From: Bacteroides sp. | Lineage (GTDB): Bacteria > Bacteroidota > Bacteroidia > Bacteroidales > Bacteroidaceae | DNA: 64,000 nt | Reading direction: 5' to 3' | Assembly: GCA_021202275.1 (NCBI GenBank) | Contig: JAJQDI010000025.1 | Coordinates: 8,112-72,111 of the forward strand | In this document: positions 2,437 to 56,272 of the stretch, piece by piece | Numbering within the stretch: the stretch's first letter is position 1 | Layout of the letters: every line of letters begins with the position of its first letter | Position numbers and translations under genes: made by a program | The notes under the pieces: generated by a model | Database searches by the model: none | What the model saw: only the letters and a program-made list of their open reading frames with translations | Told to the model about the DNA's origin: nothing

Positions 2437-2737
2437 GATTTACGATTGGACGATTTACGATTTACGATTGAAATAACATTGTATTGTATTTCCAAGGATC
2501 TGCTGCATGTACTTGTAGAGATGCGAAGAGATTTACGATTAAACATATATGTATCATATACCTGTAGAGTCACGTCCAACAAAAAATGCGTTCTACACGG
2601 TTCATGTATTCCCTTCGGTGTGCTGAGACGTACGTCGTGTGTCTCGTATGTTTGCATATAAAATGTTACGCATAAGGATTTGAAAATATTCTTTCTGTAA
2701 CTTCAATCGTAAATCGTAAATCGTCCAATCGTAAATC
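2437..2737. repeat. Heptamer inverted-repeat cassette H1 (GATTTAC arm / GTAAATC arm)
   Basis: 2437-2472 GATTTAC GATTGGAC GATTTAC GATTTAC GATTGAA is the exact 36-bp reverse complement of 2702-2737. Begins 3 nt after the susD stop. Confidence 0.95.
2560..2648 (-). repeat. Degenerate REP/REPIN fragment nested in cassette H1
   Basis: Reverse complement (gagacacacgacgtacgtctcagcacaccgaa...cattttttgttggacg) aligns with 32955-33029 (gagacgcacggcgtgcgtctcagcataccgaa...cattttttattggacg). Confidence 0.75.
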
Positions 2738-2778
2738 CTTTTGTATTATATTTGGGTAACCAAACCGGAAGACACGTC

Positions 2779-5700
2779 ATGAACAGAAAAACAATTTATT
2801 TTTGTCTCACTTTTATCGCATGGCTTCACTCTCTACCGGCTTCCGCTTTCAACCCGGAACCGATCTCTTTCCAGCACATCGGTCTCAGAGAAGGATTGTC
2901 GCAAAGTACAGTCTTCTCCATCGCCCAGGACAAACAGGGCCATATGTGGTTTGCTACATACGATGGGGTGAATAAATACGACGGATACGAGTTCAAAGTC
3001 TACCAGCACGACAGCAACAACCCGTTGTCACTGGCCAACGACATTGCCCGGGTAGTACGCACAGACAGCCGGGGCAGGATATGGATCGGTACGCGTGACG
3101 GTCTCTCCCTGTACGATGCCGGGAAAGACCATTTCCGAAATTACTTCTACGCAACCCAGGAAAAGAAAACGCAGATCAATGACATTATAGAGGTGGAAGA
3201 GAATACCCTGCTGACTGCCACTCCGGAAGGTCTTTTCTTCTTCCGGACAGAGGAAAGCCGTTTCGTAGCGGACTCATTGAGCCCTGCTTTCCACAGGCTC
3301 GACGCCACTACCCTCAGACGAGAAGGGGAGCAGATCTACATCGGAACATACGAAGGATTGTATCTCTACTCCATCGCTTCGGGCGAACTGAATCCGGTGA
3401 CACAGGCGCTGGAACAGAAGCGCATACAATCCGTACTCCGGCAATCGCCCACCCGTCTGTGGGTAGCTACCGAAGGAGCAGGACTCTATCTGGTAAACCC
3501 GCTCAACGGAGAGGTGGTGAAAAACTACCGTCACACTCCCGGAAATCCGAAAAGTATCAGTTCCAACTACATACGCTCCCTGGCATTGGACGCGCAGAAC
3601 AGGCTCTGGATCGGAACCTTCAACGATCTGAATATCTACGACGAAAGCAACGACTCCTTCCGGTCCTATACAAACGATCCGGTAGACGATACCAGCCTTT
3701 CGCAAAATTCCGTACGGAGTATATTCAAAGACAACCAGGGCGGCATGTGGCTGGGCACCTATTTCGGCGGACTGAACTACTACCATCCGCTGAAAAACCG
3801 TTTCCGCCACATCCGGCAGATCCCTTACAGAAACTCTCTCAATGAGAACATTGTCAGCTGCATGGTGGAAGACGAACGGGGCCATTTGTGGATAGGGACC
3901 AACGACGGTGGCGTCAACCTCTACGATCCGCAGCAGGAAAAATTCGTCCATTACACCCTGCCCTTAGACGCGCAGACAGGAATCGGCTCCAACAATATCA
4001 AAGCCATCTATGTAGACGAGCCCGCAGGCAAGGTATACATCGGTACACACGCCGGAGGATTATATACCCTGGATCGCAACAGCGGACGGATCACCTCGCA
4101 CCACAGCCGCAACAGCGACCTGCCGGACGACAACGTCTATGCCATCACTCCCGCGGAAGACGGCTGGTTGTGGCTGGGTACCCTGGCAGCGCTGGTACGC
4201 TTCCACCCCGGCTGCCAGCTGTTTCAGACCATACACCAGGAAGCTGGCGGAAAACCGTTTACCCACAAACAGATCACCTGCCTCTTCCGGGATTCACGCG
4301 ACCGGTTGTGGATCGCCGGTGAAGAAGACGTGTCGGTCTATCGCTGGCAAAACGGTGCGCTTTATCCCGCCACGTTGCCTGTGACCGACCTGCCTCTCCG
4401 GCATATGTTCACCCATTGTATCCACGAAAGTGCAGAGGGTGTCTTCTGGATAGGTACCCGGCAAGGTGTATACCGCTATTCGGAAAAAGACAGGACCATC
4501 CGTCACTATACCATCCACGAAGGACTTCCCAACAATGTGGTCTATGGCATCCTGGAAGATAGCTTCGGACGCCTCTGGATGAGTACCAACAAGGGACTGG
4601 CCTGTATGCAGCCGGAAACAGAAAAATTCAGGAATTTTACGGAGGCAGACGGACTGCAAAGCAACCAGTTCAACTCCTTCTCTTACTGCCGTACCTCGGC
4701 CGGACAATTCTACTTCGGAGGGATCAACGGGATCACCGTATTCCGTCCGGAACTGCTGCTGGATAATCCGCATACACCGCCCGTGATCATCAACCGGCTG
4801 CGACTTTTTCACCGTACCGTGCGTCCCGACGACGAAACAGGCATCCTGAACCGTCACATCAGCCTGACCGACCGGATCACACTGACCGCCGCCCAGAGTT
4901 CTTTCGCACTGGACTTTGTGGTGTCTAACTACATTGCCGGGCCACACAACACATTCGCCTACCAACTTCAGGGATACGACAAAGAGTGGTATGAACTCAC
5001 CGATATACGCAGCGTCTCCTACTCCAACCTGCCTCACGGTACCTATCGTTTTCTGGTGAAAGCAGCCAACAACGACGGCTTGTGGAACCACACCCCTACT
5101 GAGCTGGAGATCGTGATCCTGCCTGTCTGGTACAGGAGATGGTGGGCCATACTCCTCTTCTTCATGATCCTCTGCACCGTATCCATACAGATCATCCGTT
5201 TCTTCTGGATGCGTCAGCAAATGAAAAGTCAACTGGAGATGGAGCGTAAAGACAAGGAACGCCAGGAGGAGATCAATCAGATAAAAATGCGTTTCTTTAT
5301 CGACATCTCACACGAACTGCGCACACCACTCACCCTGATCATAGCACCTTTGCAAGAGGTACTCAACCGGGTCACCGATCGCTGGACACGCAATCAGCTG
5401 GAGCACATCCGCCGCAATACCAACCGCCTGCTCCATCTGGTGAACCAGTTGATGGACTACCGTCGGGCAGAGCTGGGTGTCTTCCGTCTGCAAGTCAGAC
5501 AAACGGAAATCCATGCAACGGTAAAAGAGATCTTCCTGATGTACGACAAAGCGGCACGAAACAAAAACATCCGATATACCCTGCACAGCGAAACAGAAGG
5601 GAAACTCTACCTTGCCGATACCAATTTTGTAGAACTGATGTTGCACAACCTGCTTTCCAACGCCTTCAAGTTTACAGGAGAAGGAAAAAGCATAGAGGTC

Positions 5701-6840: not shown

Positions 6841-6870
6841 CAAAACTGATAGTAAATTCAACAAAACTGA
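6839..6870 (+). promoter_or_regulatory. Candidate HTCS/AraC binding site: direct repeat AACAAAACTGA x2 with 21-bp period
   Basis: Exact 11-mers at 6839-6849 and 6860-6870, upstream of a TATTTTTG -7-like box (6935-6942) that precedes GH88. Confidence 0.5.
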
Positions 6871-7123
6871 AAGACATTGAACCTCTATTTTATTCCTTTC
6901 AACAATTCAGGACAAGCAGAAATAAGTCATGCGCTATTTTTGCTTTCGTAACGGAGATGACAGGCAGATCTCTGTTTCCCACTCCGGAGAACAGGAGAAA
7001 CAGATCCGGAAATCCCGAACCGGAATGATCCCTGCGCCCGGGAAAAGTGAGAGAAGAGCCGGTCACCGGGAAAAATCTCCTGACAGAAAAGTTGAATCGT
7101 TAAAATATAAGGAATACATACGT

Positions 7124-8392
7124 ATGAAAAAAAGAGTTTTACTACTGGCAGTAAGTGCTGCCCTAATCTTCACCGGATGCCGGAAAGAAACGGACCCATC
7201 CTACAATTGGGTCCGGAAAGGTATAGAAACAGCCACAGCGCAGCTTCTTCGTACTTCCGGCGAAGTAGCCCATACCGGAATGCTACCCCGCTCCATCTGG
7301 GTAGGATACGATATGGATTTTCTGTGCGCGCAACTCGAACGGGACCCGGCCACATTCAAAGACTCGCTGCGGGTGATGCCTGTGGAGAAGCTGGGCGAAC
7401 GCCGGCTCTGCCACATCTATGACTGGACCAGCGGCTTTTATCCCGGTACACTCTGGTATCTGTACGAACTGACGGGCAATCCGGAACTTCTCCGGTATGC
7501 CACTCACTTCACCAACCTGCTCTATCCGGTGCGGGAATACACAGGTACACACGATCTGGGATTTATGATCCATTGCAGTTTCGGCAACGCGGCCCGTCTG
7601 GCTCCGCACGACTCCATCGCGCCGATCCTGGTACAGACAGCAGATAATCTGATCTCCCGTTTCGATCCGGAGATCGGATGTATCCGTTCGTGGGATTTCG
7701 GATGGTGGAATTTCCCGGTGATCATTGATAATATGATGAATCTCGATCTGCTCTTTGAGGCATCACGCATCACCGGCAATCCCAAATACCGGGAGGTAGG
7801 CATCAAACACGCGCTGGTGACCATGAAGCATCATTTCCGGCCGGATCATTCTTCGTACCATGTGGTAAGCTACCACAACGACGGTACGGTAGAGGCACAG
7901 GAGACGCATCAGGGGAAGAACCACGAATCTTCCTGGGCACGCGGACAGGCATGGGCACTCTACGGATATATATCCTGTTATCAGGAAACAAGCAATCCGG
8001 CCTTCCTGAAAAAAGCAGAAGACATCGCGCGGTTCATTATGGAACGGGTGACTACAGAAGACCTGATCCCCTATTGGGACTACGACGCACCCGACACTCC
8101 GGAAACTCCGAGAGACGCTTCGGCAGCCTCTGTCACGGCATCGGCACTGATCACACTCAGTACGCTGGTCAGCAACGGAGAGGTTTATTTAACCTACGCG
8201 GAAACCCTATTGAAGAATCTGTCGTCACCTGATTATCTGGCCAGACCGGGAGAGAATCAGGGATTCATTCTGATGCATTCTACCGGCTCACTGCCCAACG
8301 GATCGGAAATAGATACTCCACTCAACTATGCGGATTACTATTACCTGGAGGCGCTCAAACGCTACGTGGACCTGAAGAAATTGACGATTTAA
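7124..8392 (+). CDS. GH88 unsaturated glucuronyl hydrolase (lipoprotein)
   Basis: Signal MKKRVLLLAVSAALIFTGC. Motifs DWTSGFYPG, THDLGF, IIDNMMNL, WARGQAW, RDASAA, YADYYYLEAL. ATG 7124 is the likely start. Confidence 0.93.
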   Translation: MKKRVLLLAVSAALIFTGCRKETDPSYNWVRKGIETATAQLLRTSGEVAHTGMLPRSIWVGYDMDFLCAQLERDPATFKDSLRVMPVEKLGERRLCHIYDWTSGFYPGTLWYLYELTGNPELLRYATHFTNLLYPVREYTGTHDLGFMIHCSFGNAARLAPHDSIAPILVQTADNLISRFDPEIGCIRSWDFGWWNFPVIIDNMMNLDLLFEASRITGNPKYREVGIKHALVTMKHHFRPDHSSYHVVSYHNDGTVEAQETHQGKNHESSWARGQAWALYGYISCYQETSNPAFLKKAEDIARFIMERVTTEDLIPYWDYDAPDTPETPRDASAASVTASALITLSTLVSNGEVYLTYAETLLKNLSSPDYLARPGENQGFILMHSTGSLPNGSEIDTPLNYADYYYLEALKRYVDLKKLTI

Positions 8393-8420
8393 CGATGGAC
8401 GATTTACTATTTACGATTGA
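8381..8420 (+). repeat. Heptamer arm H2 overlapping the GH88 stop
   Basis: TTGAC GATTTAAC GATGGAC GATTTAC TATTTAC GATTGA. The GH88 TAA (8390-8392) lies inside the arm. Only a weak partner arm near 8506-8524. Confidence 0.75.
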
Positions 8421-8572
8421 TGTTAGTTTTTAAATCAGATCGGATGTATACCGGTAGGCCCAGCAACCGTAGTGCCTGTAGCCCTCGTATAAAAGAATAT
8501 CATCCGAATCGTAACCGATAAACCATGCACGATCGCAGATCCTCTGAATGATCAAACCTAAAAATAATTAGT

Positions 8573-10594
8573 ATGAACTACCTAGTAAAAAAACTTTTGT
8601 ACATCATCTGCCTGATCTGCACTACCGCATTACAGGCACAACAACTACGCCCGGAAATATTCTCTCTGATAGACCTCAACTATCCGGGACTGGAACAAGT
8701 AAGATCCCTGCATCAGGAAGGCAACGACGTTGCAGCGGCAGAAGCATTGCTTGCCTATTACCGCCAGCGCAGTCACATCAACCACCCCGAAGTAAATCTC
8801 AACAACGTAACGATCAGCAAACAGGAGCAACAATGGGCCGATGACGCGCTGGAGCATACATTCTTTGTACACAAAGGCTATCAGCCCTCTTACAACTACG
8901 GTAAAGACATCAACTGGCAATACTGGCCCATCAAAGACAACGAACTCCGCTGGCAGTTGCATCGCCACAAATGGTTCTCCCCGATGGGAAAAGCCTACCG
9001 GGTGACGGGCGACGAAAAATATGCCCGGGCATGGGTACACCAATACATGGATTGGATCCTCAAAAACCCACTTACAGGAACAAATAAACAACCACACAAA
9101 CTCATCAGCAGCGGCGAAGTGAAAAGAGACGCGGAGAATGCACGTTTTGCCTGGCGACCACTGGAGGTAAGTCACCGTCTGCAAGACCAGACAGGTCAGT
9201 TCCTCTACTTCCTGTCCTCTCCTTCCTTCACACCGGAATTCCTGACCGAATTCCTGGTCAATTACCACCGTCATGCCCTGCATATCTCAGCCAATTATTC
9301 CGACACAGGCAATCATTTGCTGTTCGAAGCCCAACGCATGATCTACGCAGGTGCTTTCTTTCCCGAATTCAAAGAGGCCGGATCGTGGAGAAAAAGCAGT
9401 ATTGAGGTGCTGAACCGGGAAATCCACCTGCAGGTTTATCCCGATGGCGGACACTTTGAACTCGACCCACACTACCACCTGGCCGCGATCAACATCTTCT
9501 GCAAAGCACTCTTTATGGCCGATGTGAACGGATTCCGGAATGAATTTCCAGCCACTTACCTGGATACCGTAGAAAATATGATTCTTTTCTACATGAACAT
9601 CTGCTTCCCGGATTACACCAATCCTTGCTTCAGTGATGCCAAACTGGGCGATCGCAAAAATGAGCAGAAAAACTACCTGATCTGGAACCGGATATTTCCG
9701 GACAACCAGCAGATCCGTTATATGGGTACAGCCGGAAAAGAAGGAGTACCTCCCCACCAGCTTTCCAGGCCCTTCAAACACTCCGGATTCTTCGTTTTCC
9801 GCAACTCCTGGAAAGAAGAAGCCACGATAATGGTACTGAAAGCCGGACCAAAGGGGTTCTGGCATTGCCAGCCGGATAACGGAACATTCGAATTGTGGTT
9901 CAACGGTCGCAATCTCTTCCCCGACTCCGGGGCGTATGTCTATGCCGGAAATGAAGTGATGGAATTGCGTAACTGGTTCCGCCAGACCCGGGTGCACAAC
10001 ACCCTGACTCTGGACGGACGCAACTTAGAAACGACCGAATCGGTGTGCCTGCACTGGCAGGGAGAGGGAGAGGTACAGACCTTAGTCACTGAAAATCCCT
10101 CTTACGAAGGATTGCGACACCGACGCACTGTCTTCTTTGTAGATAATACCTATTTCGTGGTGGTAGATGAAGCCATTGGCAACGCCACAGGAGAAGTCAA
10201 TCTGAACTATCAATTGTGCGAAGGGGAGGTAAAGATCGACGCAGACCGTCATATCCTGCTTTCACAATTCGAAGGCGACAGCAATGTCAAACTCCAGTGT
10301 TTCGCGGAGAAAGGAACTACCCTGCGTGAAGAAGAGGGCTGGCGTTCTACCGCCTACCGCCAACGTGTGGAACGCACAGCCGTCTCTTTCAATACTCCCA
10401 AAAAGCAAGGAGATACCACCCGATTCATCACTGTGATCTATCCGGTGAAAGATGCAGCGCAGGCGCCTCAGCTATCTGCTAAGTTCACAACAAAAAAATT
10501 CAGTGAGAACCGGGTAGACGTAGAGGTGAAAGTAGACAATAAAAGCCGCAAACTAAGTTGCGAATGGCAAAGAGATTTACGATTTACTGATTGA
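8573..10594 (+). CDS. hepC: Heparin-sulfate lyase, heparinase II/III family (PL12)
   Basis: Signal peptide. Motifs DNELRWQLHRHKW, NHLLFEAQ, FELDPHYH, WHCQPDNGTFEL, HNTLTLDG. Heparin PUL context. Confidence 0.9.
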   Translation: MNYLVKKLLYIICLICTTALQAQQLRPEIFSLIDLNYPGLEQVRSLHQEGNDVAAAEALLAYYRQRSHINHPEVNLNNVTISKQEQQWADDALEHTFFVHKGYQPSYNYGKDINWQYWPIKDNELRWQLHRHKWFSPMGKAYRVTGDEKYARAWVHQYMDWILKNPLTGTNKQPHKLISSGEVKRDAENARFAWRPLEVSHRLQDQTGQFLYFLSSPSFTPEFLTEFLVNYHRHALHISANYSDTGNHLLFEAQRMIYAGAFFPEFKEAGSWRKSSIEVLNREIHLQVYPDGGHFELDPHYHLAAINIFCKALFMADVNGFRNEFPATYLDTVENMILFYMNICFPDYTNPCFSDAKLGDRKNEQKNYLIWNRIFPDNQQIRYMGTAGKEGVPPHQLSRPFKHSGFFVFRNSWKEEATIMVLKAGPKGFWHCQPDNGTFELWFNGRNLFPDSGAYVYAGNEVMELRNWFRQTRVHNTLTLDGRNLETTESVCLHWQGEGEVQTLVTENPSYEGLRHRRTVFFVDNTYFVVVDEAIGNATGEVNLNYQLCEGEVKIDADRHILLSQFEGDSNVKLQCFAEKGTTLREEEGWRSTAYRQRVERTAVSFNTPKKQGDTTRFITVIYPVKDAAQAPQLSAKFTTKKFSENRVDVEVKVDNKSRKLSCEWQRDLRFTD

Positions 10595-10832
10595 CGATCG
10601 GAGACGCTTCGCTATTTACGATTTACGGATTTACGATTTACGATTGATATTACATAGATTATAAATAAAGATATGTATCACGATTATATCACTAATCCAG
10701 GGAAATTGTTTAAAGTGAAGTTAATCCCTTCAAAAGAGTTACTTCAATCGTAAATCGTAAATCGTAAAATCGTAAATAGCGAAGCGTCCCCGATTGTCAA
10801 ATCGTAAATAGCGAAGCGTCAAATCATAAATC
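10574..10832. repeat. Heptamer inverted-repeat cassette H3 between PL12 and sulfatase
   Basis: Left arm 10574-10648, right arm 10744-10832. The 22-mer GACGCTTCGCTATTTACGATTT (10603-10624) has exact reverse complements at 10767-10788 and 10799-10820. Right arm abuts the sulfatase ATG. Confidence 0.92.
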
Positions 10833-12401
10833 ATGAAAGCTTTTCTTCTCCTTCCTTTGGGAGCACTTGCACTGTCCTCCTGCGGCAAACAGAAAGAGGA
10901 ACCCCGCCGGCCCAACATCCTGTTTGTGATGACCGACGACCACACTACACAGGCCATTTCCTGTTACGGAAGTAAGCTGGTAGAGACTCCGCACATGGAC
11001 CGGCTGGCAGCCGAAGGGATACGCTTCGACAATTGCTATGCCGTGAACGCGCTGTCCGGCCCCTCACGGGCATGTATCCTGACGGGCAAATTCAGCCACG
11101 TCAACGGATTCCGGGACAACTCCTCGGTATTCGACGGAGACCAACCCACCTTCCCGAAAATGCTCCGGGAAGCAGGCTATGAGACCGCGATAGTAGGCAA
11201 ATGGCACCTGATCTCCGAACCACAGGGATTCGATTTCTGGAGCATCCTCAGCGGTCAGCACGAACAGGGAGATTATTACGACCCCGACTTCCTGGAAAAC
11301 GGCAGTCCGGTGAGAGAGAAGGGGTATGTAACGGACATCGTCACCGACAAAGCGATCCGTTTCCTCGAAGAGCGTGACAAAGAGAAACCGTTCTGCATGA
11401 TGGTACATCACAAAGCTCCGCATCGCAACTGGATGCCTGCGCCCCGCCATCTGGGACTATTTAACAAAACGGTTTTTCCCGAACCGGACAATCTCTTCGA
11501 TACCTACGAAGGACGCAGCAGTGCCGCACGCGAACAGGACATGAGCATCGCACACACGTTGCGGGAAGACTGGGACCTCAAACTGCTCACCCGGGAAGAG
11601 ATGCTCAGGGACACCACCCACCGTTTGTATAAAGTGTACCAACGGATGCCTGCTCCTGTGCAGGACAAATGGGACTCGGTCTATGCCACCCGTATCCGTG
11701 AATACCGGTCGGGCAACCTATCCGGAGACGCGCTGGTCAGCTGGAAATACCAGCAATACCTGCGCGACTATCTGGCCACCGCACAGGCGGTAGATGAGAA
11801 CATCGGTCGCCTGCTGGAATACCTGGAAAAGAGCGGAGAGCTGGACAATACTGTCATTGTCTACACTTCGGACCAGGGATTCTTCCTGGGCGAGCACGGA
11901 TGGTTCGACAAACGGTTTATGTACGAAGAGTGCCAACGGATGCCCTTACTGATCCGGTATCCCAAAACCATACAGCCGGGCAGTACAAGCAACGCCATAG
12001 CCATGAACGTAGATTTTGCACCGACCTTTCTGGATATCGCCGGAGTAGCCATTCCCGAAGAGATACAGGGTCAATCCCTGAAACCTGTTCTGGAACAGGG
12101 CGGAGAAAAACCGGAAGAGTGGCGTGAAACCGCCTATTATCACTATTATGAGTATCCGGCAGAACATTCGGTGAAACGCCACTACGGTATACGTACAGCC
12201 ACCCACAAACTAATCCATTTCTACAACGACATCGACGAATGGGAAATGTATGACCTGAGATCGGATCCCAAAGAAATGAACAACCTATACGACAAACCGG
12301 ATCAGGCGGAAACACAGGCCGCACTGCTCCGACTGCTTCGACAAACACAAGAGATGTACGAGGTGACAATGGACGAGCCAACGGTCGACAAAGTCAATTA
12401 A
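10833..12401 (+). CDS. S1 family Ser-type sulfatase (likely GlcNAc/GlcNS-6-O-sulfatase), lipoprotein signal
   Basis: PNILFVMTDDH, catalytic S-G-P-S-R (ALSGPSRACILTG), GKWHL, SDQG, DKRFMYEE. Substrate inferred from PUL context. Confidence 0.9.
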   Translation: MKAFLLLPLGALALSSCGKQKEEPRRPNILFVMTDDHTTQAISCYGSKLVETPHMDRLAAEGIRFDNCYAVNALSGPSRACILTGKFSHVNGFRDNSSVFDGDQPTFPKMLREAGYETAIVGKWHLISEPQGFDFWSILSGQHEQGDYYDPDFLENGSPVREKGYVTDIVTDKAIRFLEERDKEKPFCMMVHHKAPHRNWMPAPRHLGLFNKTVFPEPDNLFDTYEGRSSAAREQDMSIAHTLREDWDLKLLTREEMLRDTTHRLYKVYQRMPAPVQDKWDSVYATRIREYRSGNLSGDALVSWKYQQYLRDYLATAQAVDENIGRLLEYLEKSGELDNTVIVYTSDQGFFLGEHGWFDKRFMYEECQRMPLLIRYPKTIQPGSTSNAIAMNVDFAPTFLDIAGVAIPEEIQGQSLKPVLEQGGEKPEEWRETAYYHYYEYPAEHSVKRHYGIRTATHKLIHFYNDIDEWEMYDLRSDPKEMNNLYDKPDQAETQAALLRLLRQTQEMYEVTMDEPTVDKVN

Positions 12402-12875
12402 TATTGTAACAACTTATATATTAATATATGATCCAAACAAATGATACATCCATACATCGTGAAACAAGTACGTGTTCCGGATAAATTGTATATATTATAC
12501 TGTCAGGTTGCAGAGATTGGGTATACGATGTATCTATACGTGATCCGTAAGACATTTTTTTCTTATTCCCTCTGCAGAGAAGGGGATTACCTGTAGAGAC
12601 GCACGGCGTGCGTCTCCGCGATGCAAGTCCAACAGAGAAGTGCACGTCCCCTCGGTACAAGTCCAACAGAGAGGTGTGCATCTCCGAAGTATAAGTCCAA
12701 TAAAAAGACAATATACAACCTTCCCATCCGGCATGCTTAGACGCACGGCGTGCGTCTCTACAGGATACCGGAACAGCATCCGGAACAGCATATATACACT
12801 GCATATTACCATAGTTAGCTTAGTGTATAAAATATATTTTTCAATCGTAAATCGTAAATCAGTAAATCGTAAATC
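12378..12875. repeat. Heptamer cassette H4 (eroded left arm, intact right arm) containing a REPIN
   Basis: Right arm TCAATC GTAAATC GTAAATC AGTAAATC GTAAATC at 12841-12875, 3 nt before the ATG. Left remnant CCAACGGTCGACAAAGTCAATTA (12378-12400) matches the arm module at 44973 and 56232. Confidence 0.7.
12590..12764. repeat. REPIN-like doublet of GTAG-type REP palindromes with internal 34-bp units
   Basis: CCTGTAGAGACGCACGGCGTGCGTCTC ... AGACGCACGGCGTGCGTCTCTACAGG, with AAGTCCAA at 12625, 12659 and 12693. Confidence 0.9.
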
Positions 12876-18407: not shown

Positions 18408-19296
18408 ATACTATAAGTAAAAAGTGGTTTTATCTTTCACCATCTCTCACTTTTTCAACTATCCCACAGATTATCAAAGGAATAATCAAGTGAGAGATAA
18501 AAATTACATACAATTTATCTCTCACTTTTGGGTTGATCTCTCACCATTACACATAAAACAGTAATTAGTAGACAATTACCACATAGGCACACCATCCTGA
18601 ACGCTTCCAGGCGCGATCAGACCTTCGCAGATGAAACGGTGTAACCTGCAAAATTCCATAGTTATCCATTTCTTCCCCGGAGAAGAATACTCCATACAGC
18701 CTGACTGATAGAAGGATGTGTGTCCGGACAAGCCATACACCCCTCTCCGAAGCAAAATGTTCATACCAGGGTATCCGGTCGCAAACTCACAGGAAACTGA
18801 CTGACCGGACTGTGGAGGCTGATTGGTCCCACGGGCTGGGACTTTATGTCCCACGGCGGGAAACGATTCGTTTCAGCCCGTGAAACCAATCGTCCCACGG
18901 GCTGGGACCACTCACATACCATAGGTACAACATTCCATCACACGGGAATGTCAGGCACTTCTCTGGGAGAAAACACAGGAAAGCTACCTGTTGTACCCCA
19001 TCTCAAAGATAACACAATACGATCTATGTACATAGACCCCTACAAAAAATAATTATTCGGGTACTTTCCCCCCCAAAAAAGAAATACCAGCCTCTGCACA
19101 GGAACTTGTGAAATAGCTTGTTCACAGGAAAAGACATCTACCCACCCCGATCCCTAAGAGTGAGAGATAAACCAAAAAGTGAGAGATAAATTGTACGTAA
19201 GTTTTATCTCTCACTTTTATATCCCACTCACTATCTGACATATACCATCAAAAGTGAGAGATAGTGAGAGATAAAACCGCTTTTTACTTATAGTAT
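18408..19296. mobile_element. Non-coding element bounded by 137-bp imperfect inverted repeats rich in ATCTCTCAC/GTGAGAGAT
   Basis: 18408-18544 versus reverse complement of 19160-19296: outer 47 bp have 3 mismatches, inner 56 bp have 4, middle about 34 bp diverged. No transposase inside. Confidence 0.7.
18826..18908. repeat. 22-bp-period array of quasi-palindromic units
   Basis: GTCCCACGGGCTGGGAC (18826), GTCCCACGGCGGGAAAC (18848), GTTTCAGCCCGTGAAAC (18870, inverted type), GTCCCACGGGCTGGGAC (18892). Confidence 0.85.
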
Positions 19297-25570: not shown

Positions 25571-25727
25571 GATTTACGATTGGACTATTTACGATGTACG
25601 ATTTAAATTTCATCGTTGAATGATGCCGTTTTTACTGTTGCTTGACTTACCGGTAGCTCTTGTCTGAAAATAGAATAAGCAGGATAGGTAATATCAATCG
25701 TAAATCGTAAATAGTCCAATCGTAAAT
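25571..25727. repeat. Heptamer inverted-repeat cassette H5 downstream of eda
   Basis: 25572-25605 versus reverse complement of 25694-25727: 32/34 match, both arms carrying the GATTGGAC TATTTAC variant. On the - strand the arm starts 3 nt after the eda TAA. Confidence 0.92.
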
Positions 25728-25731
25728 ATCT

Positions 25732-26403
25732 TTATTTTCTCGCCTCAGCAATATAGCCGAACGCTTCCTGACATTTAGCAGTTACCCATGCCCAATCGCC
25801 GGCTTCAAGTACCTCTTTGGGGAAAAGGTTAGAACCCATACCCACACAGGTGACTCCCGCTTTGATCCAGGCGGTCAGATTTTCCTTAGTTGGTTCTACC
25901 CCACCGGTTACCATCAGCATAGACCAGGGCATCGGGGCTTTTACATTCTTCACAAAAGAAGGTCCACCCACATTACCTGCGGGGAATACCTTGCAAAGAT
26001 CACAACCCACTTCCTGAGCAAAACCGATCTCAGAAACCGAACCGCATCCCGGAGTATAAGGGATCAGGCGACGGTTACAGATCTTTGCGATCTCCGGATT
26101 GAACAACGGACCTACAATGAAATTTGCACCCAATTGGATGTAAAGCGCCGCAGTAGCAGGATCTACGACAGAACCGATACCGATGATCATATCGGGACAC
26201 TCTTTGGCTGCCCATTTGACCAGTTCGGCGAAAACGTCCTGTGCGAAATCACCTCTATTGGTGAATTCAAATGCGCGGACACCCCCTGCATAGCAAGCTT
26301 TTACTACATTCTTTGCAACTTCCGCGTCTTTATGATAGAAAACAGGTACCATTCCGGTACTTGCCATTGCGTTGAGAACCTGGATTTTATTAAATCTTGA
26401 CAT
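25732..26403 (-). CDS. eda: 2-keto-3-deoxy-6-phosphogluconate / 4-hydroxy-2-oxoglutarate aldolase
   Basis: [38 protein letters not shown]. Adjacent to kdgK. Confidence 0.95.
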
Positions 26404-26409: not shown

Positions 26410-26915
26410 ATTTACGATTTACTGATGTACGATGTACGATTTATTTTTCACTTTAAACTATAGGGTTCATCACTGTTTCTGGCGAAGAGTAAGAATGGCA
26501 CTCACTATAATTTTATACAATTCCTGAGCTTCGCGCATTAGCCCTGCCAGTTTTTCCTCCGGGATCATTCCACTTTCAATAATCATTTTCAGCCAATGAA
26601 TGGTTTCATCCAGTTCCTCCTCTACTGTTTTAAGCTTATTAAGAAAATCCTTGCCTGACTTAGCCAGACAAGCGGCTCTGTAATTAGCTGCCGGAGATGT
26701 ACCGGATCGAATAATCTGCCGGGCTATGGCATAGCCTGCAAGTGTAGAAGGTAGATGATCTACCATTTTAATGATCCTTAGAGAAAAAGTCTTCAGCCTC
26801 AACTTCAACTCCTCACGATTCATCGCCATATAGTATATATATTATCTACGATTTACCGCTCTACGACATAGAATGTATTTCCAAATCGTACATCGTAAAT
26901 CAGTAAATCGTAAAT
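26410..26915. mobile_element. Heptamer inverted-repeat cassette H6 carrying a four-helix-bundle gene
   Basis: Arms 26410-26442 and 26883-26915 are reverse complements at 32/33 positions. The cassette fills the kdgK-eda gap. Mobility is inferred. Confidence 0.75.
26470..26829 (-). CDS. Four helix bundle protein (TIGR02436 / 23S rRNA IVS protein-like, Avd fold)
   Basis: QIIRSGTSPAANYRAACLAKSGKDFLNKLKTVEEELDETIHWL is the family signature; 119 aa. Confidence 0.92.
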   Translation of the reverse strand: MAMNREELKLRLKTFSLRIIKMVDHLPSTLAGYAIARQIIRSGTSPAANYRAACLAKSGKDFLNKLKTVEEELDETIHWLKMIIESGMIPEEKLAGLMREAQELYKIIVSAILTLRQKQ

Positions 26916-26919: not shown

Positions 26920-27963
26920 TTATCTGCTCACCCGACCAGATCCATCGCCCTTCATCAGGTTTTCCACCTCAGCGATAGTTACCAGGTTGAAGTCTCCGTA
27001 GATGGTATGTTTCAGACAGGAAGCAGCTACCGCGAATTCAAGTGCTTTCTGGTCGTCGGCAGGATAAGCGATAAGACCGTAGATAAGACCACCCATGAAA
27101 GAGTCACCACCACCTACACGGTCTACGATGTGCGTGATATCGTATCTCCTGGACATCTTCAGAGAACCGTCTGAGTAAAGCACGCCGCCCCATGTGTTGT
27201 GGTTGGCATTGATCGCACCACGCAGTGTCACGATCATCTTCTTGCAACGGGGGAATTTCTGCATCATCTGTGTACATACGGATTCAAATTCGGCAGCATT
27301 CACCTCTCCGTGAGTAGCCGTTACGTCAAATCCTTCGGGTTTGATACCGAATACTTTTTCGCAGTCTTCCTCATTACCCAGGATCACATCACAACCTTCT
27401 ACCAGCGCAGGCATCACTTCATCCGCGGTCTTACCGTATTTCCAGAGATTCTTGCGGTAGTTGAGGTCGCAGGAAACCGTTACACCCATTTCATTGGCAG
27501 CCCGGATCGCCTCCAGACAAGCATCGGCAGCACCTTGCGAGAGAGCAGGAGTGATACCGGTCCAGTGGAACCACTGCGCGTCTTTCAACACCTCTTTCCA
27601 GTCGATCATTCCCGGTTCGATCGTAGCAATCGAAGAGTGGGCACGGTCGTAAACCACCTTGGAAGCACGGTTCACCGCACCGGTCTCCAGGAAATAGATA
27701 CCAACTCGGTCTCCACCACGTACGATGTGGTTTACTCCAACGTTGTGAGAACGCAGATCCATGATACAGGATTCGGCGATGTCATTTTTGGGAAGACGGG
27801 TAACAAATTCAGTTTCCAGTCCGTAGTTGGACAACGATACGGCTACATTGGCTTCACCTCCGCCAAACGTAGCATTAAATTCTTTGGCCTGTGAAAATCT
27901 CAGGTAACCCGGAGTAGCCAGACGAAGCATGATCTCTCCAAAAGTAACAACTTTCTTTCCCAT
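26920..27963 (-). CDS. kdgK: 2-keto-3-deoxygluconate kinase (PfkB family)
   Basis: VVTFGEIMLRL, FGGGEANVA, DLNYRKNLW, DRVGGGDSF. Confidence 0.95.
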   Translation of the reverse strand: MGKKVVTFGEIMLRLATPGYLRFSQAKEFNATFGGGEANVAVSLSNYGLETEFVTRLPKNDIAESCIMDLRSHNVGVNHIVRGGDRVGIYFLETGAVNRASKVVYDRAHSSIATIEPGMIDWKEVLKDAQWFHWTGITPALSQGAADACLEAIRAANEMGVTVSCDLNYRKNLWKYGKTADEVMPALVEGCDVILGNEEDCEKVFGIKPEGFDVTATHGEVNAAEFESVCTQMMQKFPRCKKMIVTLRGAINANHNTWGGVLYSDGSLKMSRRYDITHIVDRVGGGDSFMGGLIYGLIAYPADDQKALEFAVAASCLKHTIYGDFNLVTIAEVENLMKGDGSGRVSR

Positions 27964-28190: not shown

Positions 28191-28415
28191 GATTTACGAT
28201 GTACGATTGAGATTACATGATGGAGTATTCTCATGCTAATAACGTGAAAAGATGTATGATGGAACTATTTATCAATAAGGGGGACAACCATAGTACTATA
28301 AATAAGGTAAGGAAAGATAGGATGTATAATGGACTTTAGTGTATGGTTTTTATTCAGGAAAAGACAAGGAAGGAATATAAATCGGATATGGTAAATAGTT
28401 AAATCATAAATCGTA
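28191..28415. repeat. Degenerate heptamer cassette H7
   Basis: GATTTAC GATGTAC GATTGA at 28191-28210; eroded GTAAATAGTTAAATCATAAATCGTA at 28391-28415. Confidence 0.6.
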
Positions 28416-42969: not shown

Positions 42970-43328
42970 AGCAGTCAGACGGTTTGTCGCTCACAGGATC
43001 TGTGGGAGGAAAGTCCGGGCAACACAGAGCACCCTACTTCCTAACGGGAAGCTGTCCGTGAGGGTAGAGCAACGTAGAAGAAAAGAACCGCCGTTTTCCT
43101 GGAGGAAACGGTAAGGGTGAGAAGGTGGGGTAAGAGCCTACCAGTCTTATGGTGACATAAGGGCTGTACGTCTTAGGGGTTGTAAGGTCATGTATACCGA
43201 CGTTAAGAGGGCTGCTCGCCCCATGTCGGAGGGTAGACCGCTAAAGTGGAACGGTGACGTTTCACTCAGATAAATGACAAACGCCCTGCTTGTAGGGAAC
43301 AGAACCCGGCTTACAGGCTGACTGCTTT
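42970..43328 (+). ncRNA. rnpB: RNase P RNA (bacterial type A)
   Basis: GAGGAAAGTCCGGGC, GGGTAAGAGCC, AACAGAACCCGGCTTAC. Ends pair (AGCAGTCAG / CTGACTGCT). -7 box TATCTTTG just upstream. Confidence 0.97.
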
Positions 43329-43395
43329 TTTTATTGTTTTATAGGGAACCGGTCCAAACTCCCCGGAGCCTGCAATTGTTTTATCTACTTCATGA

Positions 43396-44954: not shown

Positions 44955-45030
44955 TATTTACGATTTACTGAACCAACGGTCGACGAAGTCAACCAACGGT
45001 CAGCGAAGCTAATTACGATTTACGATTGAA
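44955..45030 (+). repeat. Lone heptamer left arm H8 with CCAACGGTCGACGAAGTCAA module
   Basis: Starts immediately after TAA: TATTTAC GATTTACT GAACCAACGGTCGACGAAGTCAA CCAACGGTCAGCGAAGCTAA TTAC GATTTAC GATTGAA. Confidence 0.85.
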
Positions 45031-45234
45031 ATTCCTTTTCATTTAATAGTCTGAATGCAGGCTCACAAATAGGATGTGATTTAAGGATCTACCAGAGGAG
45101 TCCCACTAAATAAACGAATCCCATACTACATACAGACATATTCAAGTACCAGAGGCAAACCAGCAGTTCTCTGGTATGGAATAAAAAGTTGTAATCAGTT
45201 TCCCGGACAACTGTGCCTATATACCGGCACAGAT

Positions 45235-51289: not shown

Positions 51290-51293
51290 AAAA

Positions 51294-51935: not shown

Positions 51936-51994
51936 CGGTCTGAGACAGGTGACAGGTTCCTGCCAAAGACCGAACTCAGCTACCGGTTGCCCAT

Positions 51995-52510
51995 TCAACA
52001 ATTGGCATATCCTTTGATCTGCTCAAGAGCTTTGTCATAATCAGGCTCTTGAGCTATATCAGGAACCATCTCCGTATATACCACTTTTCCTTCTTTATCT
52101 ATAATAACAATGGCACGTGCCAGTAATCCGGCCAGCGGTCCGTCTGCCATCAGCACTCCATACTGTTCGTCAAAATCTGACGGACGAAAATCCGAAAGCG
52201 GTATCACATTCTCTATTCCTTCGGTCGTACAGAAACGTTGCTGAGCAAAAGGCAGGTCTTTGGATATAGCCAATACTACAGTCTCCGGCAACCGGGTAGC
52301 TGCCTGATTAAACTTGCGTACGGAAGTCGCACAGATCGGTGTATCCAGACTCGGGAAAATATTAAGGATCACATACTTGCCTCTGAGATCTTTCAGAGAC
52401 AAAGAAGACATATCCTGCCTGATCAGGGTGAAATCCGGAGCTATGCTGCCCACTGTGATAAATTCCTTGTTCAGATTCACCTGAGTACCTCTTACAGTTG
52501 TTGTTTTCAT
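51995..52510 (-). CDS. tpx: Thiol peroxidase (atypical 2-Cys peroxiredoxin)
   Basis: IFPSLDTPIC, ISKDLPFAQQRFC, LLARA, EPDY. Confidence 0.95.
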   Translation of the reverse strand: MKTTTVRGTQVNLNKEFITVGSIAPDFTLIRQDMSSLSLKDLRGKYVILNIFPSLDTPICATSVRKFNQAATRLPETVVLAISKDLPFAQQRFCTTEGIENVIPLSDFRPSDFDEQYGVLMADGPLAGLLARAIVIIDKEGKVVYTEMVPDIAQEPDYDKALEQIKGYANC

Positions 52511-52571
52511 ATCTTTACATTTTAAGTTTACACGACTTAGTATACAGGAAACAAATATACATTACTTTTTC

Positions 52572-52794
52572 AGAGCCTGTTTACATTTTACTCATTTCTT
52601 TATTTAGTCCTGTTTTTAGGTTGTTTTTCCTTTTCTGAAGCGATAACCAACGGTCGACGCAGTCAATAGCGGGCTATCTGAGCTGAAAAAAGAGGAAAAC
52701 AAACAAAAAGAGGGCTGAAAAAAGGATGAGGGACATCCCTGATAAATCCTGCATGCGTCGACCGTTGGCTCCGCGGAAAATGTAAACAGGCTCT
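52572..52794. mobile_element. MITE copy 2 with perfect 18-bp TIRs
   Basis: AGAGCCTGTTTACATTTT (52572-52589) / AAAATGTAAACAGGCTCT (52777-52794); 223 bp, non-coding. Confidence 0.88.
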
Positions 52795-52925
52795 TATATA
52801 ACGAACAAACCTTTCTTTCAGATGTTCCGCGGTATATTTATTTATATATCTTTTATAGATAATTACAAACTCATCTGTTCCTCCGGCTGTTAATTGCATA
52901 TTCATTTAATCATAATAGCATTTGT

Positions 52926-53525
52926 ATGAGAAAAATTTATGATAACCTGGAATATACCATCAAACATTGGTGGATGTCCCTGTTATTAGGTATCCTTTAC
53001 CTGATTGTGGCGATCTTTCTGATCATTAACCCGTTAAGTAGTTATGTCGCGTTGAGTCTCCTGTTCAGCATCACCATGCTGGTGACTGGAGTTGTAGAGA
53101 TCGTTTTTGCCCTTGGTAACCGTAAACAGATAAGTAGCTGGGGCTGGTACCTGGCAGGAGGTATTATAGACCTTATCCTGGGTGTCTATTTATTGGCTTA
53201 TCCGTGGCTGAGTATGGAAGTCATACCTTTTATTATTGCTTTCTGGCTTATGTTCCGCGGATTCTCTGCCGCAGGTTACTCACTCGACCTCAAACGTTAC
53301 GGTACACGCGAATGGGGATGGTATCTGGCATTTGGTATTCTGGCCATCATCTGTTCCATCATTATTCTGTGGCAACCTCTGATCGGCGCATTGTATGCTG
53401 TATATATGATCGCTTTTACTTTCTTAGCGATCGGAATGTTCCGCATCATGCTCGCGTTCGAACTGAAAGGACTGTATAACCGAAGTAAAGAATCAGATTA
53501 CGTTGTGAAAACAGAAGAAGTCTGA
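52926..53525 (+). CDS. HdeD/DUF308 acid-resistance membrane protein
   Basis: Six hydrophobic helices; HWWMSLLLG, WGWYLAGG. Confidence 0.85.
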   Translation: MRKIYDNLEYTIKHWWMSLLLGILYLIVAIFLIINPLSSYVALSLLFSITMLVTGVVEIVFALGNRKQISSWGWYLAGGIIDLILGVYLLAYPWLSMEVIPFIIAFWLMFRGFSAAGYSLDLKRYGTREWGWYLAFGILAIICSIIILWQPLIGALYAVYMIAFTFLAIGMFRIMLAFELKGLYNRSKESDYVVKTEEV

Positions 53526-53688
53526 CTTTCCCGGGATCAGGGAGTGTGAAAAAGATGTATCCTTTGTACAGGAAATACATCTGCTGTTCTTCTATACAAA
53601 TATTCCTCTGTTGTCGCATATAGCAACAACGGAGGAATATTTTCTTAATCTTCCATCGCCTGATCGTAAACACCTCGTTCTATCCTTG

Positions 53689-55911
53689 CTATTGAAGCAC
53701 AAAGGACAATGTAGAGCGAATATCCGTTGAGGAGGATCCGATATAGGCTTTGAACTTGCCCGGATCTGCCTTCCAGTCGTGAAGGTTTTCATCGAAATAC
53801 ATCAGATCTTTTGGTTCAATGGTGAAAGAAACTACTTTTTCCTCACCGGGCTGCAATTCTATTTTATGAAACCCTTTGAGCTCTTTGACAGGACGGAGTA
53901 CAGCACTTTTTTCCTCTCCGATATACAACTGGATCACCTCTTTTCCGGCAACATTTCCTGTATTGCGCACCGGAACAGTGACTACTATGCGGTCATCAGC
54001 ACTGTGCAGGGTCACCTTATCCGCCTGTGGTTTGCCATAAGCAAACGTCGTATAGCTCAATCCGTGTCCGAATGGGAACAGAGCCGGGATCTTTTTGGTA
54101 TCGTGCCAGCGGTAGCCCACCAGGATATCCTCTTTATAGATCTGTCGGATACTGTCTCCCGGATAGCTCATGTAATCAAAAGCGTGTGCCCCGTTATCAG
54201 ATAACTTCACGGGAAAGGAGAACGGTAATTTTCCACTTGGGTTCACCTTACCGGAAAGGATGTTGGCAATGGAATGGCCACCCTGCGAACCCAGATACCA
54301 GGATTGCACAATGGCAGGAACTTTTTTAATCCACGGCATTTCCACCGCATTCCCACTGATCAGTACCATAACCATATTCTTATTCACCTGCAAGATTTCC
54401 TCGATCAGTTCATTTTGTCCGAAAGGCAATCCGTAAGTGATCCTGTCTCCGGCTTCACAATCCTGTTGATGGTTTTTGTTCAACCCTCCCACATAGATCA
54501 CCAGATCGGCTTCCCGGGCCTGGGCTACGGCATCTGCACGTAACGAATCCATGACAGAAGCCGGGATCTCCTGGATATTACTGTACATGGGGCGGCCGGA
54601 CATATACCCTTTGGCATATACAATTTTATCGCCATAAATCGCCTGAAGACCTGCCAGCGGAGAGATCTCTTCTTTTACTTTCAATTCGGACGATCCTCCT
54701 CCTTTGGTCAGACTACGGGTAGCATTTTCACCGACAACCAGTATACGATCGTATCTGTTGCCATCGATCGGAAGCAAAGGAGAGGTTTTCTTATCCGGAG
54801 CCACATTTTTCAGCAATACGGTTCCCTCTTCTCCTATCCGGCGAGCCACTTCGGCATGTTCTTCCGTAGCAAAAGATCCCCACGGACGCTGGCTGTTCAT
54901 GGTCGTACGGAAAATGAGCCTCAATATCCGGCTGGCTTTGTCATCTATGGTAGACAGGGGCACTTCACCGCTTTTCAGCATATCCAGATAAGAACGAGCT
55001 AGGTAATAATCGTCGTATGTAAACTCCGATTCCGAAGTCAGTCCGTTCGTATACGAGCCCATTTCTATATCCAGTCCATACAAGGCAGCTTCCCGGGTAT
55101 CGTGTGCCCCACCCCAATCGGTAATCACACAACCATCAAATCCCCAGTCCTGCTTCAGGATCTTCTGCAAAAGCAATTCGTTGTGGCAGGCGTGCTGTCC
55201 ACGTACTTTGTTGTAAGCTCCCATGATGCTCCAGGCCCCTCCTTCGTGTACAGAGGCTTTGAAAGCGGGCAGATAGATCTCGTACAACGCACGATCGCTC
55301 AATTCTACATCAATGTGTCCACGCCACAATTCCTGATTGTTCAACGCGTAATGTTTCACACAGGCAGCTACACCATTCTTCTGCATTTCCTGTATATAAG
55401 GGACTACCAATACAGAGGCCAGATGCGGGTCTTCGCCCATGTATTCGAAATTACGTCCGTTCAGTGGCGTACGATAGATGTTGACACCCGGTCCCAGCAA
55501 TACATCCTTGCGCCGGTAGCGCGCCTCCTCTCCTATGGCCATACCATACAAAGCAGACATTTCGGGGTCCCAGGTCGCAGCCAGACAGGTAAGTGCCGGA
55601 AAAGCCGTACAGGAGTCGCTGGTCCATCCGGCATTTCCCCAGGAATCCCACTGGATCTCTTCGCGCACTCCGTGAGGTCCGTCACTCATCCAGAGTTCGG
55701 GGATACCCAGCCGGGGTACTCCGCTGCTACTGAATTTGCTCTGCGCATGGCACAGTTTTACTTTCTCTTCCAGCGTCATACGGCTGAGTGCGTCCTGCAC
55801 ACGTTCTTCAAGGTCTCTGCTCTCATCCAGATATACAGGTTGCTGTGCCCTGACAGGGTTTACCATACAACAAACTGCGAGAGCAAAAAGAATTAGGGTC
55901 TGTTTTTTCAT
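53689..55911 (-). CDS. GH3 beta-glucosidase
   Basis: SDGPHG, GPGVNIYRTPLNGRNFEYMGEDP, KHY, ITDWG, PFGHGLSYTTF, Fn3-like C terminus. Confidence 0.93.
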   Translation of the reverse strand: MKKQTLILFALAVCCMVNPVRAQQPVYLDESRDLEERVQDALSRMTLEEKVKLCHAQSKFSSSGVPRLGIPELWMSDGPHGVREEIQWDSWGNAGWTSDSCTAFPALTCLAATWDPEMSALYGMAIGEEARYRRKDVLLGPGVNIYRTPLNGRNFEYMGEDPHLASVLVVPYIQEMQKNGVAACVKHYALNNQELWRGHIDVELSDRALYEIYLPAFKASVHEGGAWSIMGAYNKVRGQHACHNELLLQKILKQDWGFDGCVITDWGGAHDTREAALYGLDIEMGSYTNGLTSESEFTYDDYYLARSYLDMLKSGEVPLSTIDDKASRILRLIFRTTMNSQRPWGSFATEEHAEVARRIGEEGTVLLKNVAPDKKTSPLLPIDGNRYDRILVVGENATRSLTKGGGSSELKVKEEISPLAGLQAIYGDKIVYAKGYMSGRPMYSNIQEIPASVMDSLRADAVAQAREADLVIYVGGLNKNHQQDCEAGDRITYGLPFGQNELIEEILQVNKNMVMVLISGNAVEMPWIKKVPAIVQSWYLGSQGGHSIANILSGKVNPSGKLPFSFPVKLSDNGAHAFDYMSYPGDSIRQIYKEDILVGYRWHDTKKIPALFPFGHGLSYTTFAYGKPQADKVTLHSADDRIVVTVPVRNTGNVAGKEVIQLYIGEEKSAVLRPVKELKGFHKIELQPGEEKVVSFTIEPKDLMYFDENLHDWKADPGKFKAYIGSSSTDIRSTLSFVLQ

Positions 55912-56043
55912 GTTTATAAAATACAATGATACATTATTAAAAAACTATGATCTATTATTGGGGCTGCCTACAATCGCGCCTTGTAAATGGAGGCTGTATA
56001 TCCCGTCAGTTACAAAGGTTACACCGCGGAGACATAGTTTATA

Positions 56044-56083
56044 TTGGACCTGTACCGCGGAGACGCACGCCGTGCGTCTCTAC
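56044..56083. repeat. REP with one internal unit (half REPIN)
   Basis: TTGGACCTGTACCGCGGAGACGCACGCCGTGCGTCTCTAC, matching 33059-33098. Confidence 0.85.
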
Positions 56084-56114
56084 AAGTGCATAACAACATA
56101 AGAATATACATTTT

Positions 56115-56272
56115 AAATCGTAATTGATTTCATCGACCGTTGGTTCAGTAAATCGTAAATCCCTCCCCGTATTAACAAATAGATGCTCATGTAAATAGAT
56201 TTATACCCGTATTTCAAATCGTAAATCGTAATTGACTTCGTCGACCGTTGGTTCAGTAAATCGTAAATCCCT
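56115..56272 (-). repeat. Tandemly duplicated heptamer arm H9 (two 50-bp copies, 108-bp period)
   Basis: 56115-56164 and 56223-56272 differ at 2 positions. On the - strand the arm starts TGA-AGG-GATTTAC after the GH2 stop. Confidence 0.9.

Follow-up and report, generated by a model that had tools for sequence, protein, structure and literature searches.

What is a gene for a small four-helix-bundle (4HB) protein doing between two inverted arrays of a seven-nucleotide unit inside the kdgK-eda operon, and how is it related to the similar arrays nearby that enclose no gene? The question is raised by a 64,000-nt stretch of a Bacteroides sp. genome (GenBank assembly GCA_021202275.1, contig JAJQDI010000025.1, positions 8112-72111, here C11:8112-72111), referred to below as the window; coordinates without a contig name are window positions. 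The genome is 4.43 Mb in size with 46.5% G+C. The host is assigned to the environmental-clade Bacteroides because its 2-keto-3-deoxy-6-phosphogluconate (KDPG) aldolase, the eda product, shows 92-95% identity to those of Bacteroides graminisolvens, B. luti, B. ihuae and related metagenome-assembled genomes (MAGs). The double heptamer GATTTACGATTTAC (at most one mismatch) is matched 17 times in the window where 0.02 matches are expected, and Tandem Repeats Finder (TRF) reports period-7 arrays at every one of nine loci (H1 to H9) listed in a first-pass annotation of this DNA. Some of the loci belong to a heparin/heparan-type polysaccharide utilisation locus, whose genes encode a SusD-like protein, a hybrid two-component sensor, a GH88 enzyme, heparinase II/III and sulfatase; others are in the kdgK-eda operon or border the ends of a few further genes.

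The 4HB cassette at the kdgK-eda junction

Locus H6 carries a 119-aa open reading frame (ORF) at 26470-26829 on the minus strand, the same strand as kdgK and eda. The product matches TIGR02436 with 85.6 bits and PF05635 with 56 bits, in agreement with the annotation, which had placed a complete TIGR02436 gene here. Its nearest solved structure is PDB 2RLD (E=1e-15), deposited with five chains. The ORF is enclosed in a 440-nt loop between two arms, at 26410-26442 and 26883-26915, that are complementary at 32 of 33 positions. The upstream cistron of the host operon is kdgK (PfkB kinase, 26920-27963, minus strand) and the downstream cistron is eda (25732-26403, minus strand). Along the minus strand the order is kdgK TAA, AGG, arm, 53 nt, 4HB ORF, 27 nt, arm, 6 nt and eda ATG. 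The arm near kdgK thus adjoins the kdgK stop codon (TAA-AGG-GATTTAC), and the arm near eda is the 3' arm on the transcribed strand. Since the kdgK stop position is the same in relatives without an insert, the H6 insert follows a native stop. The 4HB gene, left without space for its own promoter, must be expressed by read-through.

In a comparison of 80 Bacteroidales eda loci, the usual distance between kdgK and eda was 13-50 nt. It was 275-544 nt in six of them, namely L008 (Bacteroides sp. 51), L013 (a Mediterranea MAG), L033, L037 (B. salyersiae), L055 (B. nordii) and L073. In all six, xATTTAC arrays enclose a 4HB gene that has the orientation of the operon; the copy in L073 is truncated. 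Filled and empty alleles therefore coexist at one orthologous junction. In the closest relative (kdgK 98% identical) the gap measures 87 nt and retains remnants of the outer arms without a 4HB gene. It is a deletion derivative of a loaded cassette.

Metagenome runs X3 and X4 contain a co-occurring strain whose kdgK and eda show about 97% identity. At the H6 site (window 26444-26906) this strain has a much diverged 4HB gene, with 28 differences in 152 nt and the flanking segments replaced. The metagenome contigs break at the H6 arms in all four runs. A weak PF05635 match (28.8 bits) separate from the H6 gene was found on contig C24 (C24:71354-74013), 1.6 kb upstream of the sole reverse transcriptase (RT) gene of the genome (C24:73279), and it is devoid of heptamer arms. 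Together with the RT it is presumably a diversity-generating retroelement (DGR; Avd plus RT). No RT is found near H6.

4HB genes and heptamer arms in other genomes

Of 121 Bacteroides species, 70 have PF05635, in 1-6 copies each; among the Bacteroidota sampled, it occurs in 248 of 301 genomes, and the copy number of a single genome reaches 15 or more. The association with arms was examined by scoring the bracketing inverted repeat around 4HB genes and around 416 control genes on the same loci. A score of at least 35 was obtained for 15 of 29 4HB genes (the 29 best Bacteroides loci analysed) plus five of five other 4HB genes, and for only five of the 416 controls. At a score of at least 24 the numbers are 23 of the same 29 loci and about 28 of 416 controls. 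The expectation that 4HB genes are flanked by heptamer inverted repeats more often than other genes is borne out. The arms around 4HB genes are arrays of 7-8-nt units (AATTGAC, AGCTACG, AAGTAGTT, GAAGTTAT, TTAAGTA, GAATTAT and others), and the same arm design recurs at 20 further Bacteroides loci and at 29 loci of other Bacteroidota.

Among 69 4HB genes for which both neighbours were resolved, 66 are co-directional with both, at median gaps of 44 and 50 nt. The annotation had described an element that behaves like an intervening sequence (IVS) in mRNA operons. This co-directional placement is in keeping with that description, and the layout matches that of the ORF-bearing 23S rRNA IVS (28-bp stem; PMC4990558).

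When the proteins were clustered at 55% identity, the groups matched the unit families. Cluster B (13 members, including the H6 protein) always has xATTTAC arms, cluster D has AGTTA-type units, and 4HB paralogues within one genome carry different arms. At least 10 species have a cluster B member at kdgK|eda, where most others have an empty allele; the member of genome G120 is located between an RND membrane-fusion gene (mfp) and acrB, and that of genome G059 between the two methylmalonyl-CoA mutase genes. All three junctions are operon-internal and the insert is in sense orientation. Orthologues of cluster B show a dN/dS of about 0.12 at a dS of 1.3-2.7, and their arms are still ATTTAC arrays. 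By these substitution rates the H6-type gene is functional and old, and its protein is under purifying selection. Each 4HB protein subfamily keeps its unit sequence, and the elements are gained, lost and occasionally copied.

The matching of protein and unit extends to other phyla. Among the nearest relatives encoded on plasmids, the 4HB protein of Planktothrix agardhii is 50% identical to the H6 protein; its gene has drmD and pglX as neighbours, and GATTTAC and GTAAATC arrays form one hairpin on either side of it. Plasmid relatives in Chlorohelix (L173) and Gloeocapsa (L174) are 45-48% identical and have GATTTTA arms in the context DUF1156 | 4HB | Swt1-family HEPN, and Nostoc relatives (40% identical) have GATTGCA/GATTGGA arms. 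The neighbouring DISARM gene drmD, BREX gene pglX and Swt1-HEPN genes suggest some preference for defence islands. The DUF1156 | 4HB | Swt1-HEPN context is common to a Chloroflexota plasmid (L173) and a cyanobacterial plasmid (L174).

A TTAAGTA-armed 4HB cassette was also seen in genome G106 (L141, positions 1453-1865). There the ORF ends in its own 3' arm and the next ATG is 5 nt past the arm. RNA runs containing the window itself were not found. Among metatranscriptome contigs of the G106 cassette, one spans the whole junction, and contigs with the 4HB gene only occur in two runs. Gene-less TTAAGTA hairpins with loops of 25-58 nt are present in the metatranscriptomes as well.

Gene-less elements in the window

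Clean inverted pairs in the window are H1, H3, H5 and H6, and the three gene-less ones fold 7-12 standard deviations below shuffled sequences. H1 (2432-2741) is a hairpin after the stop of the SusD-like gene with arms at 2432-2478 and 2696-2741 (44/47 identical). Its interior is degenerate and resembles repetitive extragenic palindromic (REP) sequences, and the z score of its RNA minimum free energy is -11.4. H3 (10574-10832; arms 10582-10647 and 10744-10809, 62/68) fills the gap between the heparinase II/III and sulfatase genes; the upstream ORF terminates within the arm, the downstream ATG directly follows the arm, and z is -11.7. H5 (25572-25727; arms 25572-25609 and 25690-25727, 35/38, loop 80 nt) directly follows the eda stop.

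The other five loci are organised differently. H2 (8381-8420, plus strand) is a solo 5' arm into which the GH88 ORF reads for five extra codons before it stops at a GATTTAA variant unit. H4 (12378-12875) is a composite of a 20-nt module (12378-12400), a REP pair (12590-12624 and 12731-12764) and a solo 3' heptamer arm (12843-12875) that adjoins the next ATG. H7 (28191-28415) is a degenerate pair (5' arm 28191-28216, 3' arm about 28391-28415; 20/24, z = -1.4). H8 (44955-45033, plus strand) is a solo 5' arm that begins immediately past the stop of a BrkB-family gene and is broken up by the 20-nt module, present there in two copies. H9 (56114-56272, minus strand) consists of two direct copies of the 3'-type arm plus module and is not an inverted repeat; its outer copy adjoins the stop of an 844-aa minus-strand gene (TGA-AGGG-ATTTAC). 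Heptamer arms at the nine loci are confirmed, as clean inverted pairs at H1, H3, H5 and H6 and as solo, degenerate or direct arms at the other five; of the REP interiors reported for H1 and H4, that of H1 is degenerate.

Both the GH88 ORF (window 8375-8392) and the heparinase II/III ORF (10560-10594) no longer have the stop position of their orthologues and run 5-10 extra codons into the arm. The stops in use are TAA/TGA created by arm variants, so the heptamer repeat supplies the C-termini of both proteins.

An Rfam scan of the window gave no family over the heptamer arms and no rRNA. The sole match was class A (bacterial) RNase P RNA at 42971-43329 on the plus strand (243 bits). At 18408-19296 the TRF repeats ATCTCTCACC and AGTGAGAGAT stand at either end of a non-coding stretch of about 890 bp and are unrelated to the heptamer family.

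Arm families in the whole genome

No other tandem-repeat period is nearly as common in the genome as 7, which accounts for 549 TRF rows. A strict definition gives 309 GATTTAC arms, a loose one 458. The family comprises 272 arrays with a median of 4.4 units and 32 nt; 79% of them have 4-5 units and eight have six or more. GATTTAC-then-GTAAATC pairs occur 62-63 times with loops of 30-465 nt, and adjacencies in the reverse order occur 11 times. The rule that the GATTTAC arm is 5' and the GTAAATC arm 3' in paired cassettes therefore applies genome-wide (63 against 11). The consensus of the gene-less element is T[AG]A-AGRG-ATTTACGATTTAC[T/G]GATTTACGAT[G/T]TACGATTGAAATTAC, followed by the loop and the reverse complement. 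The inner end motif GATTGAAATTAC of the arms is conserved, and the TRA-AGRG flank resembles part of a terminal repeat.

Placement relative to genes is also regular. Forty-eight of 62 pairs sit between co-directional genes, where the 5' edge is a median of 3-4 nt past the upstream stop and the downstream start a median of 74-85 nt from the element. A stop triplet is found at offset -7 in 88 of 458 arm starts, compared with about 20 at other offsets. Elements that touch the next ATG are H3, H4, H6 and one at C10:305667. About half of the loops share modules and the remaining loops are unique; the longer gene-less elements contain nested REP-type palindromes. One 158-nt gene-less element is present twice on contig C10. 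The two loops are 98.9% identical, homology stops precisely where the arms end, and the flanking sequences have nothing in common, which shows duplicative spread of the whole element.

The 20-nt module CCAACGGTCGACGAAGTCAA has 94 copies in the genome (up to three mismatches), 43 of them within 40 nt of a heptamer array. It is often placed between the heptamer units of an arm, and its copies in the window are at 12378-12400, 44971-45008, 56125-56147 and 56232-56254. Two further families of tandem-unit palindromes, described below, are found for example at C10:150756-150863, C14:18720-18905 and C9:15196-15337, and they are sometimes nested within one another.

Distribution among relatives

The arm-end motif TTTACGATTGAAATTAC (up to two mismatches) has 202 matches in this genome, 77 in Bacteroides sp. 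51 and 75 in genome G096; five further species have 16-27, and most of the remainder 0-5. A family confined to this species had been considered because GATTTACGATTTACNGATTTACGAT has 108 matches here and none in 40 relatives; this idea was overturned when the looser arm-end motif was found in many Bacteroides. We compared orthologous junctions via their flanking proteins, the relatives being only about 66-73% identical at the nucleotide level. The heparin-locus junctions are empty in genomes G002, G003 and G004; in G013 the GH88|heparinase junction contains a GTAAATC arm. In B. nordii, eda is followed by a GATTTAC hairpin in the same place as H5. Arm families replace one another between species.

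Interpretation and alternative explanations

Our favoured reading, which we hold with about even confidence, is that the elements are IVS-like palindromic insertions that ride host transcription in transcribed gaps outside rRNA, and that the loaded form carries the cognate 4HB protein. The transcript would fold as a 30-35-bp stem. RNase III may then cut this stem, by analogy with the ORF-bearing 23S rRNA IVS, giving a discrete 4HB mRNA and separating the flanking cistrons. A pentameric Avd-like protein would recognise its cognate heptamer units, either as RNA or as DNA; the occurrence of GATTTAC with the same protein subfamily in Planktothrix lends this putative binding indirect support. The gene-less hairpins would represent a related, largely independent population, a few of which may have come from internal deletion of a loaded cassette. 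Most gene-less palindromes would spread or persist without a resident 4HB gene, by a mechanism encoded outside the element.

Several results weigh against this reading or restrict it. The statement that the element encodes no nuclease, transposase or RT was upheld: pairs up to 6 kb apart enclose no transposase-like ORF, the sole true cargo being the 4HB gene; the Y1 transposase, or REP-associated tyrosine transposase (RAYT), has no match in the genome (PF01797, 0 matches; 95% complete); and the sole RT belongs to the separate DGR. Neither of the two recently copied C10 elements has a visible target-site duplication. Two further arm families have no cognate 4HB gene in the genome: an AAGTTTT/AAGTTAT palindrome family (about 100 arrays, 16+9 pairs, never reversed) and a AGAAGAAC/AAAAGAAC octamer family (59 arms, 13 pairs). 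Gene-less arms are abundant in genomes without PF05635, with 141 AATTGAC matches in G086 and GATTTAC-motif matches in G067 (27) and G053 (18). Because of these genomes and the two families without a cognate gene, the 4HB protein is not needed for the persistence of arms. A tie between each gene-less arm family and a resident cognate 4HB gene had been considered; it fails in G086, G067, G053 and G106. No 4HB fragments were found in gene-less loops or elsewhere in the genome. The annotation had taken H6 as the loaded form and the other loci as empty or re-loaded derivatives. The filled and empty alleles and the 87-nt deletion derivative agree with that view at kdgK|eda, and the lack of 4HB remnants, the arms in PF05635-free genomes, the two families without a cognate gene and the lack of special similarity between partner arms (below) speak against it.

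The arm sequences themselves tell against the RNA stem as the selected feature. An arm is generally no more similar to its partner than to the family at large (median rank 58 of 122), and apparent covariation of partner arms as locus-specific variants turned out to be mostly subfamily structure at the same median rank. Among arm mismatches there is no bias towards G-U in the sense transcript (41 against 49; 38 against 46), and most are transversions; the G-U wobble test for RNA-level selection was negative in gene-less pairs and in loaded cassettes. The arm mismatches give no sign that RNA pairing as such is under selection. In 4HB cassettes the two arms differ from each other at 18% of spacer positions and at 7% of positions in the ATTTAC core (p = 0.001), which fits selection on the unit sequence, not on the stem. 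Since there is no G-U excess and partner arms are not closer, the arms look selected as sequences, or are simply young, rather than kept as RNA base pairs.

It is possible that the hairpins serve the host as intercistronic RNA structures in the manner of E. coli REP/bacterial interspersed mosaic elements (BIME), protecting against 3' exonucleases, tuning termination or ribosome release or coupling translation, with the 4HB gene as a passenger. The fixed distance of arms past stop codons in co-directional gene pairs, the arms that adjoin the next start codon (H3, H4, H6 and C10:305667), the constrained array length and the arms that distant species retain at orthologous sites (at the 3' end of eda in B. 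nordii, at GH88|heparinase in G013) would all be expected of such a role, and Xanthomonas heptamer arrays are described as similarly placed and transcribed (PMC4692102). A host function sits poorly with a copy number that differs hugely among congeners (202 arm-end matches here, 0-5 in most), with arm families that swap between species, with orthologous junctions that are mostly empty, and with the missing G-U signature; it also leaves unexplained why one protein family with matched units is found in the loops across phyla. We regard it as unlikely.

Ordinary MITEs (miniature inverted-repeat transposable elements), moved by a transposase encoded elsewhere or since lost and carrying a captured 4HB gene, would account for arms that resemble terminal inverted repeats, for the high and lineage-specific copy number, for the two near-identical copies with unrelated flanks and for the modules common to about half of the loops. 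The absence of a transposase from every pair and of Y1/RAYT from the genome, and the lack of a visible target-site duplication at the two C10 copies, make this explanation quite improbable in our judgement. A passenger would moreover not be expected to be 96% co-oriented with host operons, to show a dN/dS of about 0.12, or to keep its heptamer with its protein subfamily from Bacteroides to Planktothrix. We give hardly any credence to the view that the arms are functionless, slippage-prone simple sequence repeats that arose in place, with pairing and the gene link as by-products. Period-7 arrays are indeed the commonest tandem class in the genome, and a heptamer excess in many bacteria is reported in PMC4692102. 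Slippage would not hold the unit number tightly at 4-5, fix the polarity (63 against 11), conserve the inner end motif GATTGAAATTAC, fix the position relative to stop codons or conserve the unit over saturated synonymous divergence.

Significance

PF05635/TIGR02436 is among the most widespread uncharacterised small-protein families. To our knowledge, the origin and spread of rRNA intervening sequences have been open since the 1990s, and we know of no explanation for the bacterial heptamer-repeat excess other than G-quadruplex formation, which is inapplicable to GATTTAC. The H6 locus ties PF05635, the rRNA IVS and the heptamer excess together in cultivable gut and environmental Bacteroides. A broader proposal, more tentative than the IVS-like reading and to our mind doubtful, is that PF05635 proteins and inverted arrays of 4-5 heptamers constitute a two-part genetic system. 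The pentamer would be the sequence-specific partner of its own units (here GATTTAC, retained from Bacteroides to Planktothrix), and the system would colonise transcribed junctions, both cistron boundaries and rRNA helices, in several phyla without a transposase. If this were true, the 23S rRNA IVS, the heptamer excess and the PF05635 family would be three faces of one element class. The natural filled and empty alleles at kdgK|eda make RNase III processing, protein-repeat binding and effects on the operon directly testable. In practical terms, the arms break assemblies and give neighbouring genes their C-termini and stop codons.

Comparison with known systems

A literature search on heptamers, PF05635, TIGR02436 and the IVS protein in Bacteroides returned nothing relevant except a DGR review and a paper on the Coxiella IVS. 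The elements differ from intrinsic terminators: the stems are 30-65 bp long and A+T-rich, the loops measure 80-440 nt, and the stem is followed by CCCTT, ATG or similar letters with no T-run. With MITEs they share terminal inverted repeats (62-63 pairs) and numerous dispersed arms (309-458); a parent element with the same ends and a transposase was not found among pairs up to 6 kb. REPs are single imperfect palindromes of 20-40 nt that are tied to a Y1 (RAYT) transposase. Like REP/BIME, the present elements are small, high-copy extragenic palindromes within transcription units and near stop codons; unlike them, GATTTAC arms are arrays of tandem units in a genome without Y1 (RAYT). The H6 protein and the Avd protein of DGRs belong to a related four-helix-bundle fold and family, and the sole other PF05635-like gene here (C24:71354) lies 1.6 kb from the sole RT. 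In contrast to that copy, the H6 gene has heptamer arms and no adjacent RT or DGR context.

Heptamer arrays have been described in Xanthomonas (GGGAATC) and Nostoc (GGGGAYT), with a preference for about four units and a location near stop codons between aligned ORFs (Rehm et al., 2015; PMC4692102). According to that study, 70-75 convergent pairs in Xanthomonas form inverted repeats, most arrays are transcribed, and they are interpreted as G-quadruplexes. GATTTAC arrays have the same size optimum (about four units) and the same placement between aligned ORFs near stops. They differ in that GATTTAC/GTAAATC forms no quadruplex, since there is one G per strand, and in their link to a 4HB gene, which the accessible text of PMC4692102 does not make.

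The closest layout is that of the ORF-bearing 23S rRNA IVS, which is also reported from Leptospira. The Coxiella burnetii 23S rRNA IVS has a 28-bp terminal stem, is cut by RNase III in mid-stem and encloses an S23p (PF05635) ORF; its mobility has been proposed and never explained, and no enzyme is known (PMC4990558). The host here is a protein-coding operon (kdgK|eda, mfp|acrB or the methylmalonyl-CoA mutase genes) instead of a 23S rRNA helix, the arms are built of 4-5 tandem heptamers and hundreds of copies are gene-less; RNase III excision, shown for the IVS, would apply here by analogy. Both have a PF05635 gene in the loop (in the window at H6 only, the other loci being gene-less), a stem roughly 28-33 bp long and a loop of some 440 nt; both lack a promoter, are transcribed with the host RNA and are sporadic in distribution.

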